From an uncultured Planctomycetota bacterium (GTDB lineage: Bacteria; Planctomycetota; Planctomycetia; Isosphaerales; Isosphaeraceae), in contig CAWJTV010000026.1 of NCBI GenBank assembly GCA_963845755.1, positions 1-64,000 on the forward strand: a DNA stretch of 64,000 bases. The letters run 5' to 3'. Within the stretch, counting starts at the first letter, position 1. Each line of letters begins with the position of its first letter. Made by a program: the position numbers and the translations under genes. Positions 34,039 to 57,149 of the stretch are shown here, one piece after another. The notes beneath the pieces were generated by a model, which saw only the letters and a program-made list of their open reading frames with translations, searched no databases and was not told the origin of the DNA.

Positions 34039-36404
34039 ATGGAATCACCACCAGAACGCGCTGTGCCCCGTCTCGACGTGAGATTCCTGGCCGGGCTGAT
34101 CCTGGTCGCGGTGGTCGCGGTCCTGGCGATGAATGCGACCAGGCGGGTGGCCGAGCTTCCCAAGGAGACGGCGCAGGACGTCTCAGTGCATCGATCGGAA
34201 ACCGCCCCGAATGCCGCGGTGACCCCCGCTGATGCCGCTCGAAACCTCGTCGTCTCGCGGCGGGAGATCCGGAAGGGACTGGCGTATCAGCCGCGTAAAC
34301 CGATGGATACCAGCGCCTTCTACTCGGCCCTGGCGCACCTCGCCGCTGGCCGAATACCGCCTCGCTGGAAGACATCCGGGATAGTTGGAAGAAAGTTGAT
34401 GGGTGGATGGGCGTGGAGCTGGACAGGGCCCTGCCCCCTCCCGGCAAGTCGGATTCGCACCGGCTGCTGATCCTGCTGTCGAAGGCCAGTCTCCTCAACT
34501 TCCAGGGGGAACCGAAGCGCGCCTACGAATTGCTCGAAGAGACGCGGTCCTGGGTCGAGCAGAGTGACGGGCTCGCCGAGCTCGGCCTGTTCACCGTCAT
34601 CTACTTCCAGGGAGTGACCGGGCTGCGGCTGGGCGAGACCGAGAATTGCGTGAAGTGTCGGGGCGAGAGCTCGTGCATCATCCCCATCGCGCCGGCGGCC
34701 GTTCACACCATCCCCACCGGCTCCCGCCTGGCGGTCCGGCATTTCACCGAGTATCTCGAGCAGTTCCCCGACGACCTGGGAATCCGCTGGCTGCTCAACC
34801 TGGCCCACATGACCCTGGGCGAGCATCCCCAGAAGGTCGATCCGCGATTCCTGATCGCCCTGGACCATTTCGTCAAATCCGAGCTCGACATCGGCCAGTT
34901 CCGCGACATCGGCCACCTGGCGAAGGTCGACCGGCTGAACATGGCCGGCGGCGCGGTGATGGACGACTTCGACGACGACGGCCGGCTCGATCTGGCCACC
35001 ACCAATTTCGACCCGGCCGAGCCCATGGCCTATTACCACAATACCGGCGACGGGACCTTCCAGGATCGTAGCGAATCGGCCGGCCTGGCCCCGCAACTGG
35101 GGGGCAAGTATCTGGTGCAGACCGATTACAACAACGACGGCCGGCTGGATCTGTTCATCTCGCGGGGCGCGTGGTTCTTGTTGCCGATCCCGCAAAGCTT
35201 GTTGCGCAACGAGGGCGGCGGCAAGTTCACCGATGTCACGAAAGAGGCCGGGCTGGGCGCGCCGATGAATTCGACGTCCTCGCGCTGGGCCGACTACGAC
35301 AACGATGGCTGGCTGGACGTCTTCATCGTCGGGGAACGGCCGGCGGACCGCCTGTATCACAACCGGGGCGACGGGACCTTCGAAGACGTCACCGCCAAGG
35401 CCGGCCTGAGGAAGAGCGGCCCCTTCTTCGGCAAGGGGGCCGACTGGATCGACTACGACAACGACGATTATCCCGACATCTTCATGAACAACCTCACGGG
35501 GGACCCGAAGTTATATCACAACAACCGCAACGGGACGTTCACCGAGGTGACCAAGTCCATGGGGATCGACGGCCCCCGCAAAGGTTTCGCCTGCTGGGCC
35601 TGGGACTACGACAACGACGGCTGGCTCGACCTCTTCGCGACCTGCTACGACTACACGCTGGAGGACGTGGTCAACGGCCTGATCGGGAAGCCGCACAAGG
35701 CCCTTTCAAACCGGCTCTTTCGCAACGTGGGCGGCAAGCGATTCGAGGACAAGACGAAGGAAGCCGGCCTGGATCTGGTCTTCGCCACCATGGGCAGTAA
35801 CTTCGGCGACCTCGACAACGACGGCTTCCTCGATTTCTACCTGGGGACCGGCGACCCGGATTTCAGCCTGCTCGTCCCCAACCGGATGTTCAAGAACGTC
35901 GCGGGCCGGCGCTTTGCCGAGATCACCGGCTCCTCCCGGACGGGCCACCTCCAGAAAGGACACGGCGTCTCCTGCGCCGACTGGGACAACGACGGCGACG
36001 TGGACATCTTCATCGAGATGGGGGGCGCCGTCCCCGGCGACCGGTACCACAACATCCTGTTCCAGAACCCCGGCCAGGGGAACCACTGGCTGACCGTGAA
36101 GCTCGTCGGCCAGAAGACGAACCGGGCGGCCATCGGTGCCCGGATCAAGGCCGTCACGGCGGGCGAGACGCCGCTGACGATCCACCGCCACGTGTCCTCC
36201 GGCGGCAGTTGGGGAGCGAACCCGCTCCAGCAGCAACTCGGCCTGGCCAAGGCCGAGAAGGTTGCGACCCTGGAGGTCCACTGGCCGGTCAGTAAGACGA
36301 CCCAGGTCTTCCGCGACATCGCGGCCGATCAGACCATCGAGATCACCGAACTCGCCCCGGACTTCAAGAAGCTGGATCGGAAACCGATCCCGGCGCCGAA
36401 ATGA
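34039..36404 (+). CDS. CRTAC1/ASPIC-UnbV family FG-GAP repeat protein (frameshift near 34340-34400)
   Basis: N-terminal TM; ENCVKCRGESSCIIPI; many D.DNDG.LD repeats; GHLQKGHG; WLTVKLVG...NRAAIGARI. Confidence 0.9.
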
Positions 36405-47801: not shown

Positions 47802-48335
47802 ATGCAGCATCCGGCGACAGGCGATGTCGTAGGTCATGGCGCCAGCCTTACGATGCAGACAACGATAGCTGGGGGTGGTACAATTCGGCCAGACAAGGAG
47901 AACGGACAACAGGGGCCGGCCTCCGGGAATTCCCGAGGAGGTGCGCAGCGGAATCCGTCATTGAAAACAAAGACACCCCTGGATGGAACTCCCTATCCGA
48001 GAGATCCCGGGAGCGCTCCCATTAGCGGCACCACCTCGGATGGCGGGTATGTCTATGTCCGAGACGCAAGTGGGACCGTCTACGTTCTACCCGATGGGCC
48101 GCATTTGCATCCGAAAGTACTTGGAGGCGCCCTGCCTGCCTCATACGCAGGCGATTTGACCATCGCAAAGGGCACAGTCGTTGATTTGACAAATCTCTCG
48201 GGGACCTTCCGATTCAGGAGTCGAGCAGGGTTGCTGGATGTAGCAAAGCAGCTCGAGAGTCAAGGCTTGACGATCCAGCCTGGTGCCGTTCGATTCTTTC
48301 CCGCGGATGGATCGCGTCCTGTCACGCTACGATGA
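47802..48335 (+). CDS. Hypothetical protein, candidate polymorphic-toxin C-terminal domain (start uncertain)
   Basis: Low-complexity linker, then YVYVRD...HLHPKVLGG...YAGDL...DLTNLSGTF; AT-richer than neighbours. Confidence 0.5.
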   Translation: MQHPATGDVVGHGASLTMQTTIAGGGTIRPDKENGQQGPASGNSRGGAQRNPSLKTKTPLDGTPYPRDPGSAPISGTTSDGGYVYVRDASGTVYVLPDGPHLHPKVLGGALPASYAGDLTIAKGTVVDLTNLSGTFRFRSRAGLLDVAKQLESQGLTIQPGAVRFFPADGSRPVTLR

Positions 48336-48371
48336 ACTCAGTCCTGACGAGGTAAATGGAGGTTGCGATCG

Positions 48372-48824
48372 ATGCCGATGAAGATCGTCATCCTCGAGGA
48401 CGACCAACGCCGTGTGGAGGCCATGCGAGACCGCCTGGCCGATCGATTCTATCAATTCGAACACGTTTTTTTCGACTCGTCAACTGAACTTAACGAATAT
48501 TTGGAAAAGCATTTAAATGAAGTGATTGTGTTATCGCTGGATCATGACCTGGAGTTGAAGGTGGACTCCACCGGAACAACGAACGATGCCGGTACGGGTC
48601 GAGAGGTGGCGGACTACCTGGCGAGACAGGGACCCAGTTGCCCCGTGATTATTCATTCGACCAATGAATTTGGTGCACTTGGCATGGAAGGGGTCCTTCG
48701 AGAAGCGGGATGGAAGACTTGCCGGGTCACGCCCTTCGACGATTTGCTGTGGGTCCATGAGGCTTGGTTTCCCGCGATCCGCCGGGCCATTGTCAGGGGA
48801 CCGGCAGCCTCCCTGGGGACATAG
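48372..48824 (+). CDS. Cyclic-phosphate-processing receiver-like domain protein
   Basis: GGAGG RBS; ILEDD..R; LSLDHDL; GTGREVADYL; VIIHSTN..GA..M. Confidence 0.78.
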   Translation: MPMKIVILEDDQRRVEAMRDRLADRFYQFEHVFFDSSTELNEYLEKHLNEVIVLSLDHDLELKVDSTGTTNDAGTGREVADYLARQGPSCPVIIHSTNEFGALGMEGVLREAGWKTCRVTPFDDLLWVHEAWFPAIRRAIVRGPAASLGT

Positions 48825-49017
48825 GTGCTTCGCGGGCGATCGGACGGCTCGTACGGGCCGCCTTCGTCGCGGGGCCTGGATACCACTTGGTCGGAATGTG
48901 ATTGAGAATCGCGGGACGTCGGCGATATCTTTGACGGTGACGGCCGGTCAGAGTCGCATGGATTCCGATGGGAATTTCATCCCGCCGATTCCTCGGCGAT
49001 GGGGGAGATCGATCAGA

Positions 49018-51525
49018 ATGTCGAGTCGGACACTTTGGGTCCTGGGCGCAGTCTGTGCCCTATCCTTGGGCCTGCTGCTGGTCTCGGGCCAGATGGGCGC
49101 GAGCCTGTGGCACCGGAGTTCGGCACCGCCGGTCGGGTCGGCCCTCCCCTCCCCCTTCGAGGCAAGGACCGAAGCCACTACGTCGCCGGACCGGCAGTCC
49201 CCGGCCGGCTCCGGCTGGGCTCCCGCGCTGGATCCGAGCGACAACCCGGACCCGAAGGCCGACCTCACGCTAGGCAAGGACCAGCGCGAATACCTCTGGC
49301 AAGTCGAGCATCATGGCCTGGTCCTGAGCCGGCTGGGTTTTTCCCGGATCGCCAAGGCGCTGAAGGACGACGATCCGAAAGCCTTCCTGTCCCTCTGCGC
49401 CGAGGGGTTCGCGGGTGAGGTGCCGGGCCATCCGCGTGAAGTCCGGTTCGAGCACGATGCGACCCGGCTCCTCCGCCAGAGGGATTCCGGCCAGCCGTCG
49501 GTCCGGCTGGACCGCCAGGCGATGATCCTGCGCCTCTTCGAGGACCGCCGCCGGTTCACCGGCCGGCCCAACGTGAAGCTCGCGCTCATGGGGCTCGCGC
49601 CGGTCGACTACAAGGACCTGGACGGGATCTGGCAAGGGACGTGCCAGCTCCGGATGTCCGGCGAGATGGGGGCGGGACGGCCCGGCGAAGTGGTCCTCTA
49701 CCTGCAATATCGCCTGCCCAGGCCGACCGAAGAGCTCCTGAAGTCCGACGGCTGGCTCCGCTCCTGCGCGATCACGCAGCGCCAGGTTGCCGAGGCCCCG
49801 CGATTCCTGATGCACGAGGTCGCCGCCCGGCGCGGGATCGACGTGAAACCGTTCCACGACAACTGGAGCACCCCCGAGGATACGCAGATCGTCTCCGGCG
49901 GCGTCAACCTCTGCGACTACAACCGCGATGGCTGTCTCGATATGCTGGTCACCGACGTGGCCACCAACGTGCTCTATCAAGGTCAACCCGACGGCACGTT
50001 CGCCGACGTCACCAGCCAGGTTCGCCTGCCGCAGATCCCCACGATGATCACCGCGACATTCGTCGACCTCGACGGCGACGGCTGGGAAGACCTGATCTAC
50101 GGCAGCCTGCTGCTTCGTAACCACGAAGGCCGATACTTCGCGCCGGTCGACACCCCGACCCTCTCCGTGCGCCCCCAGGCCAGCGTGGCCGTCGCCGACT
50201 ACGACCGGGACGGCAAGGTCAACCTGTACGTGACCTATATCGGTTTGACCAAGGCCGCGACCTGGATCAAGGGCGAGGGGGGCGGACAGGTGCACAACCG
50301 GCTGTGGAGGAACCTGGGGAATTGGAAATTCGCCGACGTTACCGAATCCAGCGGCGCCTCGGGGGGCAACCGGTTCGACCTTCACCGCGATCTGGCTCGA
50401 CGCCGACGAGGACGGCTGGCCCGATCTTTACGTGATCAACGAGTTCGGCGCGGCGTCCTCCTCGTCAATCAGGGGAATGGAACGTTCCGCGAGCAGTTGA
50501 TCGAGGACGATCCTGGCGACTTCGGCTCGATGGGGGTCACGGCCGGCGATTTCGACAACGACGGCCACATCGACATCTACGTGGCCAACATGTACTCGAA
50601 GGCTGGCAACCGGGTGATGGGTAATCTCTGGCCGGGGTCGTATCCGGATTCGATCCTCGACAAGCTCCACTCGTTCACCAAGGGGAGCCAGTTGCACCAC
50701 AACCTGGGCGGCCTGAAGTTCGAGCGGATCGGCCGGGACCTCCAGGTGGCGGACGTCGGCTGGGCGTATGGCCCGGCGATGGCCGACCTGAACAACGACG
50801 GCTGGCTCGACATCTTCGCCACTTGCGGGTTCATCAGCCGCTCCCGCGACGATCCCGACGGGTGAAACTGCGTGTGGCAGGCTGTCGTGTCACAGCCTTT
50901 CAACCGCGGAGCTTCGGTACCGGCACCCGGTGCGGTCGACTCGTCCCTCGGCGAGTTCTGGGTCACCAACCCCTGGGACATCGTCGACAAGGGCCACAAC
51001 CTGAGTGCCTACGAGCGCAAGCGCGCGTTCCTCAACGTCGGGGGTACGGGTTTCGTCGATATCAGCTACCTGACCGGCGCGGATAGCGACGGCGACGGCC
51101 GCTCGGTGGTCGCCGGCGACTTCCGCAATGACGGCCGGCTCGACCTGGTACTCCGGCAGGTGGGCGGCGGGCCGCTCCGGCTCTTCGAGAACCAGTTCCC
51201 GAAGGCCCACTATTTGACCGTCTCGCTCCGCGGCCGGGCGAGCAACCGGCTCGGGATCGGGGCGCGGGTGACCGCAACGGCCTCGGGACGCACGCAGACC
51301 CGAGAGCTTTATCCTCATAACAGCTTCCATTCCCAGATGGCCAGCCGCCTGCATTTCGGCCTGGGCGACGCCACGCAGATCGATCGGCTGACCGTCCGCT
51401 GGCCCTCCGGCGCCGTGCAGACGCTCGAGAACCTGGCCGCCGATCGCCATGTGATGATCACCGAGGGACTGGCCGGAACCTACGCCCTCGAGACGGTGAC
51501 CCCCGGCCGGCTTATCGCACCGTGA
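49018..51525 (+). CDS. FG-GAP/CRTAC1/ASPIC-UnbV protein with in-frame UGA; candidate selenoprotein (about 835 aa, UGA at codon about 616)
   Basis: ORFs 48664..50865 and 50872..51525 are in the same frame, separated only by TGA-AAC-TGC. The FG-GAP propeller continues after the UGA (DFRNDGRLDL) and ends in an ASPIC/UnbV domain. A compensating +1/-1 indel pair lies at about 50375-50452. Confidence 0.75.
50879..50898 (+). promoter_or_regulatory. Candidate bacterial SECIS element
   Basis: AGGCTGT-CGTGTC-ACAGCCT: 7-bp perfect stem starting at +14 after the UGA, loop G at +22 followed by U. Confidence 0.65.
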
Positions 51526-51633
51526 CTTTTCTCGGATTCTCTCGGTAAGATTGATGGAGAACCACTCGAAGACGGCCCAGGCTCTCGGGCCGAAGGGATC
51601 GTGCCGATTCGCGAATCCGGAGATATCGACGCC

Positions 51634-53208
51634 ATGATAGGTTTCTTCCAACGGCGCAAGGCCCTGTCGCAGGCTGCCGTCTTGCTGCTGGGAGCGATAC
51701 TGGGTCTCCTGGCTCGCGATCTGACGATGCCGACACGAGGTGACGATAGCTCCAGGACGAGCGACGATCGTGGGATGTCCCAGCCTCGGGAAGGGTCGCA
51801 CCTGGCCCCGGATACGGCCGCCGCCTATGCCCCCGACTGGGATCGCCCCTATCCTCAGTACCAACCGGTCGGCACGGTCCTCAAGCCCATGCCCCGGCTG
51901 AAGCCGGGTGAGATCTGCCCCCAGGATCTTTCCCCCTTCGGCGGGGCGGGTCATACCTCGTACAGCGCCCTCGACGACGTGGGCGACTTCGAGAGCTTCT
52001 GCCGCATGTGCAAGGAGAACAAACCCCGGCTCATGGAGGAACGCCGCAAGTACATGGAGCAGCGGTATAATTTCAGCGCCGCCGTGACCCGCGACGTGAC
52101 CATGACCCGCGGCAAGCCGCTCCCCGTCGGGCCAGTCGCGCGATTGCCGAAGGAGATTGCCAGTTGGAGCGAGCTGGCCGGGCTGGCGCCGGCAGAGATC
52201 CTGCGGCGCGACCTGTTCCCAATCGGCTTCCGGCCGCTCTCGCATCCCATGCATACGGTCGGCCACCAGCTCTTTCCAGCGATCTGGATCAAGTTTCATC
52301 CCGAACACGAGCGGTTCGACGTCGATTTCGACATCCCCGATCCCTACCTGCCCGAGTTCCCACCCCCGCTGTTCCTGACCACGCGTCCGGACCTGGGCGA
52401 CGTCTCGCGCGGGCATGAGATCACCCAGGCCAACTTCCGCGAGCTGTTCGAGGGGATCCTCACCCCGGAGCAGCTCGAGGGGCTGCGATTGCTGGTCACC
52501 AAGTTTCCCACAACCTGGTTCAATCAAACGAAGCACCGGGTGACCGAGAAGCCGATGCGGGGTACAGCCTGCTTCGATTGCCACGTTAACGGACATACCA
52601 ACGGCGCGATCGCGCTCGATCCGGGCACGCGGCCGACGCTGGCCCGAACGCGGACCGACACGCCCACTTTGCGCGGCAACCATAACATGCAACTGTTCAG
52701 CTCGCGGCGCTCGATTCGTTCGACCGACCATTTCGCCGAACTGGAGGAATACTTCGATGGCGATATCAGCCTTCAGCTCCAGCTCGGCGGCCGGCAGCTC
52801 GACAAGCCCAGCACGAACCGAATGGGCGATTTCAATTCGATCATCGCCTGGCCCCCGGCGTCGAAGCTGGATCGGTTCGGCCGCCTGATCGCGGCGAAAG
52901 CGACGCCGTCAGAGTTGCGCGGCGAGGCCCTCTTCTTCGGCAAGGCGCGCTGCGCCGCCTGCCACCCGGCCCCGACCTATACCGACGACAAGATGCACGA
53001 TCTCCGCGTCGAGGAGTTCTACCATGGCCGCGCCGAAGGCTGGATCAAGACCTTCTCGCTCCGCGGCATCAAGGACTCGCCACCGTACTTCCACGACGGC
53101 CGGCTGCCCACCCTCGAGGATACGGTCGAGTTCTTTAACCTGATCCTCGACCTCAAACTGGCCGATCCGGAGAAGACCGATCTCGTGGCGTTCCTGCGGC
53201 AGCTCTAA
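51634..53208 (+). CDS. Di-heme cytochrome c, bacterial cytochrome c peroxidase/MauG superfamily-like
   Basis: N-terminal TM/signal; CFDCH (52570) and CAACH (52951); TPTLRG; RGEALFFGKARC; KTFSLRG..DSPPYFHDGRLPTLEDTVEFF. Confidence 0.88.
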   Translation: MIGFFQRRKALSQAAVLLLGAILGLLARDLTMPTRGDDSSRTSDDRGMSQPREGSHLAPDTAAAYAPDWDRPYPQYQPVGTVLKPMPRLKPGEICPQDLSPFGGAGHTSYSALDDVGDFESFCRMCKENKPRLMEERRKYMEQRYNFSAAVTRDVTMTRGKPLPVGPVARLPKEIASWSELAGLAPAEILRRDLFPIGFRPLSHPMHTVGHQLFPAIWIKFHPEHERFDVDFDIPDPYLPEFPPPLFLTTRPDLGDVSRGHEITQANFRELFEGILTPEQLEGLRLLVTKFPTTWFNQTKHRVTEKPMRGTACFDCHVNGHTNGAIALDPGTRPTLARTRTDTPTLRGNHNMQLFSSRRSIRSTDHFAELEEYFDGDISLQLQLGGRQLDKPSTNRMGDFNSIIAWPPASKLDRFGRLIAAKATPSELRGEALFFGKARCAACHPAPTYTDDKMHDLRVEEFYHGRAEGWIKTFSLRGIKDSPPYFHDGRLPTLEDTVEFFNLILDLKLADPEKTDLVAFLRQL

Positions 53209-53446: not shown

Positions 53447-54352
53447 ATGGCACGGATCACACTGGGCGCGGATCGATTCGACGCGGAGGCCAGCCGGGCG
53501 GAATATCGCGGGCTGGAGATGGGAGATATCCTGTATTTCCCGGTCTCGCCACCTCTGCTCTCCGAGCCGGACCGGGCGTTCCTGGTCACGCAGAAGCAGG
53601 TCAACGCCGCGTATCACAAGAACGTCAGTTATCGTCCGCTGGAGGATCGCCTCAAGGGGGTTGACCAGGACGACGCGGCGCAGCGCGAGCGGGTCCACGG
53701 GATCATGCGTGGCTACTCTCAACGGGCGATCGCCTTCATGTCAACGTTGTTGAACCGGTATGCGACGAGCTGGAAGATCGACTTCGCCAGCTTCCGGCCG
53801 ATCGAGGAGGAAGGGCGTCAGGTCTCGCTGCACTCGCGGAACGACTTGCTGCATTTCGATTCGTTCCCGACCCGGCCGTCGTACGGCGATCGCCTGCTGC
53901 GGATCTTCACGAACATCAACCCGGAGCGGCCGCGGGTCTGGCTCACCACGGACCACTTCGAGGATCTGGCCGGCCGGTTCGCCGAACGGGTCGGGCTCCA
54001 TCGCCGGCCGGGTGCGCTGGAGACTTGCAAGCACTGGACGGTCCGGGCCGCGGCGAAGCTCGGCTTGCCGGTGGTTGACCGGCCGCCGTACGATCGGTTC
54101 ATGCTCCGGATCCACCACGCGATGAAGGAGGACGCCGGCTTCCAGCAATCGTGCCGCAAGGACCGCTGGGAGTTTCCCGCCGGCTCGACCTGGATCGTCT
54201 TCACCGACAGCGCCAGCCACGCTTGCCTGAGCGGACAATATATGCTGGAACAGACCTTCATCGTCCGCAGGTCCAGCCTGACCTGCCCCGAGAAGGCCCC
54301 GATTGCGATCCTGGAGAAGCTCGCGGGCCATCCGCTGGCCCGCAGCGCGTGA
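53447..54352 (+). CDS. Kdo hydroxylase family 2OG/Fe(II) dioxygenase (KdoO-like)
   Basis: KNVSY; SFRP.EEEGR; LLHFDSFPTRPSYGDRLLRIFTNINP; YDRFMLRIHHAMKED; FPAGSTWIVFTDSASHACLSGQYMLEQTF. Confidence 0.88.
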   Translation: MARITLGADRFDAEASRAEYRGLEMGDILYFPVSPPLLSEPDRAFLVTQKQVNAAYHKNVSYRPLEDRLKGVDQDDAAQRERVHGIMRGYSQRAIAFMSTLLNRYATSWKIDFASFRPIEEEGRQVSLHSRNDLLHFDSFPTRPSYGDRLLRIFTNINPERPRVWLTTDHFEDLAGRFAERVGLHRRPGALETCKHWTVRAAAKLGLPVVDRPPYDRFMLRIHHAMKEDAGFQQSCRKDRWEFPAGSTWIVFTDSASHACLSGQYMLEQTFIVRRSSLTCPEKAPIAILEKLAGHPLARSA

Positions 54353-55752: not shown

Positions 55753-57149
55753 ATGAGTGACCGACTGACAGGACGCTGGCGAACCAGGTGGAGGCGGTGG
55801 ATGGCCGCCCGGAGAAGAGCCGGAGGGACGGTCCATCACAGGTCCCGGCTGCGGGTCGAAGGACTGGAGGGGCGTGCGCTGCTGGCGAGCATCACGGAAT
55901 TCCCGATCCCGTCGAACTCGGGCTCCGCGGCCAGATCGTCGCCGGACCGGACGGCAACCTCTGGTTCACCGAGAATGATGCGGTCTCCAACAGCATCGGC
56001 CGGATTACGCCCAGCGGCCAGGTCACCGAGATCAAGCTCCCGACCCCGGGCGCCAACCCGTACGGGATCACGGTCGGGCCGGACAACAACCTCTGGTTCA
56101 CCGAGGAATTCGGGGGCAACATCGGTCGGATCACCACCTCCGGACAGATCACCGAATTCCCGATCTCCAGCAATTCATCAGGACAGTTCCCCGAAGGGAT
56201 CACGACCGGTCCGGATGGCAACCTCTGGTTCACCGAGAGCCTCGGCCACGCGATCGGCAAGATGACCACGACCGGTCAGGTCACCGAGTATCCGCTCCCG
56301 GCCTTGTCGTCCCCCACGAACATCACCGTGGGGCCCGATGGCAATCTCTGGTTCACGGATCCGGGCACCGACTCGGTGGGCATGATCACGACCAGCGGGC
56401 AAGTCACCGAGTACAAGCTCCCCTCGATCACCGCCGACCCGGACGGTATCGTGACCGATCCGCAGAACCACAGCCTCTGGATCACCGAGGATTTCGACGG
56501 CAAGATCGCCGAGATCTCTCCCGACGGCCAGGTGCTCAACCAGTACACGGTCCCGGGTGACTTCCCCCAACCCAGCGGGATCACCGTCGGGCCGGACGGC
56601 AACCTCTGGTTCACCGAGAAGGGGGGCAAGAACATCGGCGTGCTCAACCTCGCCGGCGGTCAGATCACCCAATTCCCCGTCCCGGGCACAAATCCCCAGA
56701 CAGTCGGGATCGCGGTCGGACCAGGCGGCAACCTCTGGTTCACGGATCAGGGAAACAAGAGTATCGGTGAAGTCGTGATCGGCTCACCGACACCGACACC
56801 GACACCCACGCCGACACCGACACCGACACCCACGCCGACACCGACACCCACGCCGACACCGACGCCCACACCGACACCGACGCCCACGCCGACGCCCACA
56901 CCACCGCCCACACCGACGCCCACACCGACACCGACGCCCACACCGACACCGACGCCCACACCGACACCGACGCCACCGCCTACGCCGCCGCCCGCGCCGG
57001 CGCCAACACCCGGGCCCATTCGACATCGACGGCCACCGCGACCCGTCCATCGACAGCCACCGCGACCCGTACACCCACATCCAGCCCAACGCCGACATCA
57101 TGTCAAGTCCCGGCCCTTACCGCTGCGGGACGAACCAAGAAAGGCTTGA
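55753..57149 (+). CDS. Secreted Vgb-like beta-propeller protein with LE.R.LL leader and Pro-Thr tail (frameshift near 55925)
   Basis: [16 protein letters not shown]; about seven [12 protein letters not shown] repeats; (PT)n linker; basic tail. Confidence 0.88.
56787..57012 (+). repeat. Coding hexamer tandem repeat (Pro-Thr)n
   Basis: CCGACA / CCCACG units in frame. Confidence 0.9.

Follow-up and report, generated by a model that had tools for sequence, protein, structure and literature searches.

We asked whether an in-frame TGA codon in the genome of an uncultured Isosphaeraceae planctomycete ends a gene or is read as selenocysteine (Sec). The codon lies in a stretch of 64,000 nucleotides (assembly GCA_963845755.1, contig CAWJTV010000026.1, positions 1 to 64,000; hereafter the window), in which two open reading frames (ORFs), 48664..50865 and 50872..51525, have an identical frame. 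The codons at the site read GAC GGG TGA AAC TGC GTG TGG CAG, with the TGA at 50863-50865, and translation of positions 49018-51525 of the forward strand through this codon yields a single protein with one internal TGA. This bears out the first claim of an original prediction, made from the letters alone, which held that the frame is kept across the UGA at 50863 and that the gene encodes a new exported beta-propeller selenoprotein. From comparison with homologues, it is highly probable that the UGA at 50863 is a selenocysteine codon. We are likewise confident of the overall reading, namely that a single gene encodes an exported, CRTAC1-like protein with FG-GAP repeats and an ASPIC/UnbV domain and that its UGA is decoded as Sec; this reading includes a redox role, which is weighed separately below.

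The domain content of the translated protein was determined with Pfam. FG-GAP_3 repeats precede the TGA and UnbV_ASPIC comes after it, with an E-value of 2e-24, so that the part downstream of the UGA does supply the ASPIC/UnbV domain, as had been claimed. An NCBIfam search of the window protein returned only a sub-threshold match to XAC2610. The likely start is the ATG at 49018; both this start and the hydrophobic N-terminus are conserved in an orthologue from the relative G015, and the segment concerned, MSSRTLWVLGAVCALSLGLLLVSGQ, may serve as a membrane anchor or signal peptide. Over 573 residues, the window protein and the G015 orthologue are collinear, at 78% identity. Two paralogues that had been reported in the window are both present, at 34941-36350 on the forward and 31155-29686 on the reverse strand, and each is ~27% identical to the window protein.

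We then examined the TGA in homologues. Six-frame translations that ran on through stops were searched in a set of 61 genomes (the window genome G000 and 60 relatives) and in a second sample of 401 genomes of the phylum. In the latter, matches were taken at E <= 1e-35 and only four candidates were scored per genome, so that copy numbers are lower bounds. Among the 61 genomes, all seven matches at 35-83% identity hold exactly one TGA, and the weaker paralogue matches are nearly all stop-free, one row carrying TAG. In the phylum sample, 73 of the 401 genomes had a match; an in-frame TGA was found in 109 of 123 among the matches listed (a single TGA and no further stop in 106), and 14 had none. 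When the read-through products of 37 fetched loci, 23-89% identical around the site, were aligned, the TGA fell in one column in 35, the other two having Glu and Asp. The frame was kept across the TGA in all TGA-bearing loci, and conservation is among the highest in the residues that flank it on either side. A homologue search of the joined protein, proposed at the outset as a check, has therefore returned a conserved UGA column.

This recurrence bears on the alternative that the TGA is a true stop, either in a recent pseudogene or between two genes with separate products. Such a stop would agree with the databases, where 43 of the best 120 proteins are gene calls that break off exactly one residue short of the Sec column in the alignment; these truncated calls are named 'hypothetical protein' or 'FG-GAP repeat domain-containing protein'. 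It would also agree with a GTG three codons past the TGA and with frameshifts in the window copy. However, because the TGA recurs in the same column across such diverged loci, and in four phyla, a chance nonsense mutation is unlikely. The preserved frame and well-conserved flanks likewise speak against a stop, and the frameshifts are most likely artefactual, as described below. We consider a true stop very improbable.

The four phyla emerged from a scan with a degenerate DNA motif for DDL-UGA-SFFWR in one-genome-per-species contigs, which gave at least 120 stretches, of which 80 loci were read. All but one (79/80) were open on both sides of the TGA; the eightieth, in Edaphovirga, was a chance match and was rejected. 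By record title, the origin of the 79 was Planctomycetota-type in 28, Verrucomicrobiota-type in 28 and Acidobacteriota-type in 19, including 4 from Candidatus Multivorans; the remainder comprised one Armatimonadota, two 'uncultured bacterium' and one bin labelled Enterobacteriaceae. This last locus, L095, is a genuine family member with its hairpin intact, which suggests a mis-binned contig. In another locus, L056, the C-terminal ~50 residues appear frameshifted. Because annotation cuts the genes at the UGA, this large family is recorded as fragment pairs in Planctomycetota, Verrucomicrobiota, Acidobacteriota and Armatimonadota.

The fetched members form two subtypes. The subtype of the window gene, with 17 fetched members, has the motif PDG-U-x-C-[VIL]-W, a length of ~785-855 residues and an end directly after the ASPIC domain. 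The sister subtype, which is the larger group, has DDL-U-SFFWR without a nearby Cys and is 1000-1320 residues long. The window protein reads PDG-U-NC-VW and ends after ASPIC, and does not belong to the sister subtype. A Cys at +2 relative to Sec is present in 16 of the 17 window-subtype members and in none of the sister subtype. The U-x-C motif put forward in the original prediction is thus a feature of the window subtype and does not extend to its sister. Judged by its sequence, the gene is an intact U-x-C-subtype member of a widespread, poorly documented family of predicted selenoproteins with a CRTAC1-like fold.

Could the TGA be wrong, base calling or assembly having altered a sense codon (TGG, TGC or TCA, for instance)? 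The assembly is demonstrably erroneous: the frame switches twice in rpoC (G000:C34:567489-571586), once in rpoB (G000:C34:79366-83015) and twice in selB (G000:C29:294598-296489). Because the essential rpoB and rpoC cannot be broken in this way, indel errors must be frequent, and they probably also lower the completeness estimate (87.9%). However, the errors observed are insertions and deletions, not substitutions, which agrees with the earlier statement that all other breaks are indels. Moreover, Logan contigs from two public soil metagenome runs (X3 record 14 and X2 record 11) agree fully with the window over 50777-50927 and 50865-51015. They span the TGA codon or its last base, at a depth of only 2-3, and since they match without difference the TGA and the hairpin are independently seen; the codon, for which verification in reads had been advised, shows no difference wherever these contigs reach it. 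The same codon also occurs in homologues from other assemblies. An error at this codon is hardly credible.

Indels do affect the gene elsewhere. DNA alignment with the G015 orthologue revealed a surplus base near 50374 and the loss of one base after 50449, a +1/-1 pair that had been overlooked before. The window protein diverges from the orthologue in this one stretch, NRF-DLHRDLARRRRGRLARSLRDQRVRRG, where the pair scrambles 26 codons of a calcium-loop blade, and frame +1 between 50374 and 50449 restores the conserved STFTAIWLDADEDGWPDLYVINEFG. Contig X3 record 12, mismatch-free over 50290-50441, is one base shorter at 50374; among the Logan contigs of public runs, no informative one spans the deletion after 50449. 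Since rpoB and rpoC are frame-broken and the contig lacks the extra base, the pair is most likely an assembly artefact and not a lesion. The organism itself most probably carries both the gene and selB unbroken. Among the public runs, no RNA run is listed as containing the stretch.

Bacterial Sec insertion uses a hairpin just 3' of the UGA with a G early in the apical loop, which in E. coli fdhF is followed by U (G23/U24). In the window, a stem formed by AGGCTGT (50879-50885) and ACAGCCT (50892-50898) closes the loop CGTGTC (50886-50891), with G at 50887 and then U. Counted from the base after the UGA, the hairpin starts at +14 and the loop G lies at +22, in agreement with the coordinates predicted; when the U of UGA is counted as 1, the loop residues are G25 and U26. 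As in the fdhF-type SelB/SECIS (selenocysteine insertion sequence) system, the hairpin lies inside the ORF a few bases past an in-frame UGA, at about the same distance, and has a loop G-U. The two differ in that protein fold and location are unrelated, the stem sequences are different, and SelB binding here is predicted. An Rfam scan of 48000-52500 at E-values up to 10 gave chance-level matches only and no SECIS family.

The pairing is maintained by covariation in both subtypes, an expectation of the original prediction. For the window subtype, 17 sequences were compared over 48 nucleotides from the UGA, with stem columns 17-23 set against 30-36. This showed 88.2% of cells paired, versus 22-56% when the partner was slid by 1-3 columns. 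Both-sided changes occurred in 4 of 7 pairs (for example U-A to C-G, A-U to U-A, and GGCUGU/ACAGCC to GGUCGC/GCGACC), and 0 of 500 shuffles reached the covariation score. In the sister subtype, 16 of 18 sequences were compared (the divergent L046 and L070 were left out; columns 15-20 with 26-31) and 97.9% were paired, one pair being divided between AU in 9 and GC in 7. Among the 80 motif loci, all six stem pairs are kept in 70 and five in 6. Because the stem lies within codons, amino-acid changes are coupled to it: the residues after Sec read RQVVS with A-U pairing, and RRVTS or RRVAS with G-C pairing (alignments A1/A2; L076-L155). Such a coupled pattern is, on these alignments, hard to explain by protein constraint alone. 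Here, RNA structure appears to shape protein sequence in the residues after Sec.

A further alternative is that the UGA is read through without Sec, by near-cognate or suppressor decoding, with the hairpin only stimulating read-through. Nothing specific favours it, and the Sec machinery of the host genomes argues against it. The window genome (14.27 Mb, 49 contigs) contains all four of selA, selB, selC and selD that had been suggested for a search: profile scores were 376 bits for selD, 472 bits for selA, 298 bits for the first of the three frame pieces of selB and 78.4 bits for tRNA-Sec, and ARAGORN called a tRNA-SeC with anticodon tca. All five relatives having orthologues possess selA; in the phylum sample, 63 of the 66 other genomes that hold a TGA-bearing copy possess it too, versus 288 of 401 overall. 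Both the position of the hairpin and its loop G-U are as in SelB-binding elements. In addition, TGA terminates the window gene itself and 20 of the 37 fetched homologues and is thus an ordinary stop elsewhere. Read-through without Sec is accordingly given little credence. The preferred reading, in which the UGA encodes Sec, requires nothing unusual, since recoding would follow the usual bacterial route: the hairpin at 50879-50898 would recruit SelB with Sec-tRNA(UCA), and Sec would be inserted at the UGA at 50863. With the UGA conserved, the hairpin covarying and the sel genes present, the earlier view of an exported beta-propeller selenoprotein is supported.

Several points weigh against Sec decoding or temper the evidence for it. 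It rests on comparative sequence evidence, not experiment, and because related sequences are not independent, homologue counts overstate the support. The fold energy of the hairpin, -20.1 kcal/mol, has a z-score of only -2.24 and taken alone is only modest evidence, because 5 of 200 shuffles fold as well; part of the hairpin conservation also arises because the stem sits in conserved coding sequence. The selB of the window genome is split over three frames, which, if real, would deprive the strain of Sec decoding, although the similar breaks in rpoB and rpoC lead us to attribute it to assembly indels. G001, a genome of the same genus, has selD and lacks an orthologue of the gene. Three TGA-bearing genomes are without selA (G282, G389 and G390), and in two of them, G282 (90% complete) and G390 (84%), neither selA nor selD was found at the thresholds used. 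Missing contigs, mis-binning or a dead gene could account for this. The third, G389 (67% complete), has a selD with one in-frame TGA (G389:C251:4352-5308), which probably encodes a Sec-containing SelD.

It was also of interest where the Sec would lie in the folded protein. An AlphaFold2 model was built for the intact G015 orthologue (574 residues, Sec entered as Cys, 37-sequence alignment) and reached a predicted local distance difference test score (pLDDT) of 91.3 and a predicted template-modelling score of 0.92. Its best fold match in the PDB is murine CRTAC1 (9etn_A, E 7e-25, template-modelling scores 0.68/0.70). In the model, Sec is residue 355, predicted as the first residue of helix 355-364 within an insert spanning residues 343-405 (pLDDT 85-89), and the Asp two residues before it (D353) is invariant. 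Because the Sec column is a gap in 16 of 25 own-genome paralogue matches spanning the site, the insert that holds it is specific to this clade; ordinary paralogues of the window genome differ from the window protein in having no Sec-bearing insert.

We next considered what the Sec might do. In the sister subtype, Pfam finds an AhpC-TSA/Redoxin domain after ASPIC in 9 of 15 long proteins, in many cases with TPR repeats behind it. A CxxC in thioredoxin-like surroundings (LNLW..C..C), 262-283 residues past Sec, is present in 14 of 14 Sec-bearing sister proteins, and L059, the sole Glu form of the 15, has no Cys at that site. A profile of the fused thioredoxin-like domain matched neither the window nor any of the 17 window-subtype loci. 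For Sec-free forms, the 160 residues surrounding the site were taken as a profile and run with hmmsearch against 1.84 billion representatives; multi-repeat FG-GAP proteins crowded part of the result. The best 150 included 149 newly fetched proteins, of which 82 span the Sec column, the four lowest-scoring of these being poor matches. The stop-free residues at the column were Glu in 26, Ser in 13, Asp in 10, Ala in 8, Asn in 8, Gln in 4, Cys in 4 and others in 9. Among stop-free forms with a C-terminal extension, the CxxC is retained with Glu in 1/22, Ser in 2/10, Ala in 0/6, Asn in 1/6, Asp in 1/5, Gln in 1/4 and others in 0/2; it is kept in 6/55 non-Cys forms versus 2/4 Cys forms and 14/14 Sec forms. 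This contrast counts related sequences and is not tree-corrected.

Both the CxxC that accompanies Sec and the Cys at +2 are predicted by a thiol/selenol redox couple. A redox role is the best-supported function suggested by these alignments, and we would put its prospects at about even. The Sec at the helix N-terminus of the clade-specific insert would probably form a selenenylsulfide redox couple with the Cys two residues on, and in the sister subtype the fused TlpA/AhpC-like CxxC domain would serve the same purpose in place of the +2 Cys, the family most likely being one of extracytoplasmic redox enzymes. A fuller version can be put forward only tentatively: Sec as the centre of redox catalysis in an extracytoplasmic enzyme on a CRTAC1/ASPIC-UnbV scaffold, with two interchangeable recycling arrangements having evolved, a local U-x-C couple in the window subtype and the fused CxxC domain in its sister, and with the many Glu, Asp and Ser forms as redox-dead derivatives whose CxxC was lost as well.

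The composition of the column is a difficulty for this redox role. Cys forms exist but are exceptional (4/82), which is unusual for a selenoprotein family, and because of this rarity the usual Sec/Cys argument is inapplicable here. The commonest residues, Glu, Ser and Asp, would suit a ligand or an acid/base function too. The main rival accordingly holds that Sec is decoded but that its selenolate is a ligand of a metal or other group, or an acid/base-like anion, instead of a redox centre. Glu and Asp together make up 36 of the 82 stop-free residues, the invariant D353 lies close by, and calcium-binding DxDxDG loops of FG-GAP propellers are visible in the alignments, all of which would suit a ligand. 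Against this, the CxxC of the fused thioredoxin-like domain accompanies Sec in all 14 Sec-bearing sister proteins and is mostly lost with Glu, Asp, Ser, Asn, Gln and Ala, and all but one of the window-subtype members have the +2 Cys. A ligand role is, on balance, unlikely. Under the redox role, the Sec-CxxC association (14/14 vs 6/55) becomes a testable prediction, and a conserved Sec that has a Cys close by or a CxxC domain fused on argues for redox catalysis at a concrete, testable site.

Thioredoxin-fold selenoprotein families of bacterial surveys include Prx-like, DsbA-like and thioredoxin-like proteins, and Cys homologues are the rule among them. The window protein resembles these UxxC/CxxU proteins in the predicted position of Sec at a helix N-terminus by a Cys or CxxC and in a probable extracytoplasmic thiol/selenol redox role. 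In contrast to them, its Sec lies in a beta-propeller insert, the spacing is UxC, and Cys forms are rare. With CRTAC1 (murine 9etn), its best fold match, the family shares the FG-GAP and UnbV_ASPIC pair; it differs at 16% sequence identity and in that CRTAC1 has no Sec. To our knowledge, no biochemical activity has been assigned to the CRTAC1/UnbV fold, and the redox-centre reading, if true, would be a first handle on the role of CRTAC1/ASPIC-UnbV propellers. The ASPIC/UnbV domain is also common to UnbV, or 'enediyne biosynthesis protein E4', a name that several database homologues bear. In four aligned E4-named proteins the conserved Sec column is absent, three being gapped there, and the ORFs scanned beside the window gene include no enediyne gene cluster.

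The family is not entirely without precedent. Table S9 of Kim et al. 2016 (PLoS One, PMC4807772) lists four genes of this kind as candidates, with the same domains, from the same phylum and with an in-frame UGA splitting the gene into two calls; bSECISearch was positive for three of the four, and the closest stop-free match had Gly. In the parts of that paper covered, they are table rows only, without column conservation, covariation, subtypes or distribution, and the likeness to the window gene is one of description, not of sequence; the portions of its main text and Text S2 covered do not mention ASPIC. The word 'new' in the original prediction therefore needs softening, because four such genes were already listed as candidates, and it holds in so far as the family is absent from the catalogues compared. 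The family was not found in the main texts of BSepDB 2026, deep-Sep 2025, a 2022 review, a 2026 review and a 2016 ISME survey, or in the deep-Sep supplements; BSepDB Table S2 was possibly not covered, and Haft & Gwadz 2023 and Haft & Tolstoy 2025 lie outside the comparison. A search for literature linking selenoproteins with FG-GAP, ASPIC, UnbV, CRTAC1 or VCBS found nothing relevant. As far as compared, the four rows of Table S9 are its sole appearance in print, and the family is missing from selenoproteome counts. The coordinates of the features are collected in Table 1.

Table 1. Features of the predicted selenoprotein gene, in window positions.
Feature	Position	Strand	Basis or remark
Whole predicted selenoprotein gene	49018..51525	+	835 codons plus terminal TGA, UGA at 50863 read through
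N-terminal hydrophobic segment MSSRTLWVLGAVCALSLGLLLVSGQ	49018..49092	+	Seen in translation; similar segment in G015 orthologue
FG-GAP beta-propeller region, including the putative Sec-bearing insert	49801..51252	+	Pfam FG-GAP_3 E 4.8e-35; model fold match
Out-of-frame stretch in assembly	50374..50449	+	DNA alignment with G015 orthologue
Clade-specific insert holding the predicted Sec, ~63 residues, between propeller strands	50827..51015	+	Paralogue gaps, model
UGA as predicted selenocysteine, U-N-C motif	50863..50865	+	Cys codon at 50869-50871
SECIS-like hairpin, 7-bp stem, 6-nt loop CGUGUC	50879..50898	+	Fold and covariation
ASPIC/UnbV domain, wholly downstream of UGA	51253..51450	+	Pfam PF07593 E 2e-24, residues 864-929 of P0001

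Among the neighbouring genes, the ORFs at 48363-48824 (+; cREC_REC, E 2e-12), 53447-54352 (+; Kdo hydroxylase, E 4e-90) and 55788-57149 (+; virginiamycin B lyase family, E 2.5e-84) have no evident selenoprotein link. The ORF at 51601-53208 (+), 76 nucleotides downstream of the gene, encodes a hydrophobic stretch at the N-terminus and two haem-binding motifs of the CxxCH type (CFDCH and CAACH), with a weak resemblance to di-haem cytochrome c peroxidases (1iqc_A, E 2.7e-4; Pfam RoxA-like_Cyt-c, E 0.0099). In the other fetched loci it is not conserved within the 1.5-kb flanks, and it is kept beside the G015 orthologue, at 81% identity. The distribution of the gene is patchy: G001, of the same genus as the window genome, is without an orthologue, and G015, of another genus, has both an 83%-identical orthologue and the same downstream neighbour.

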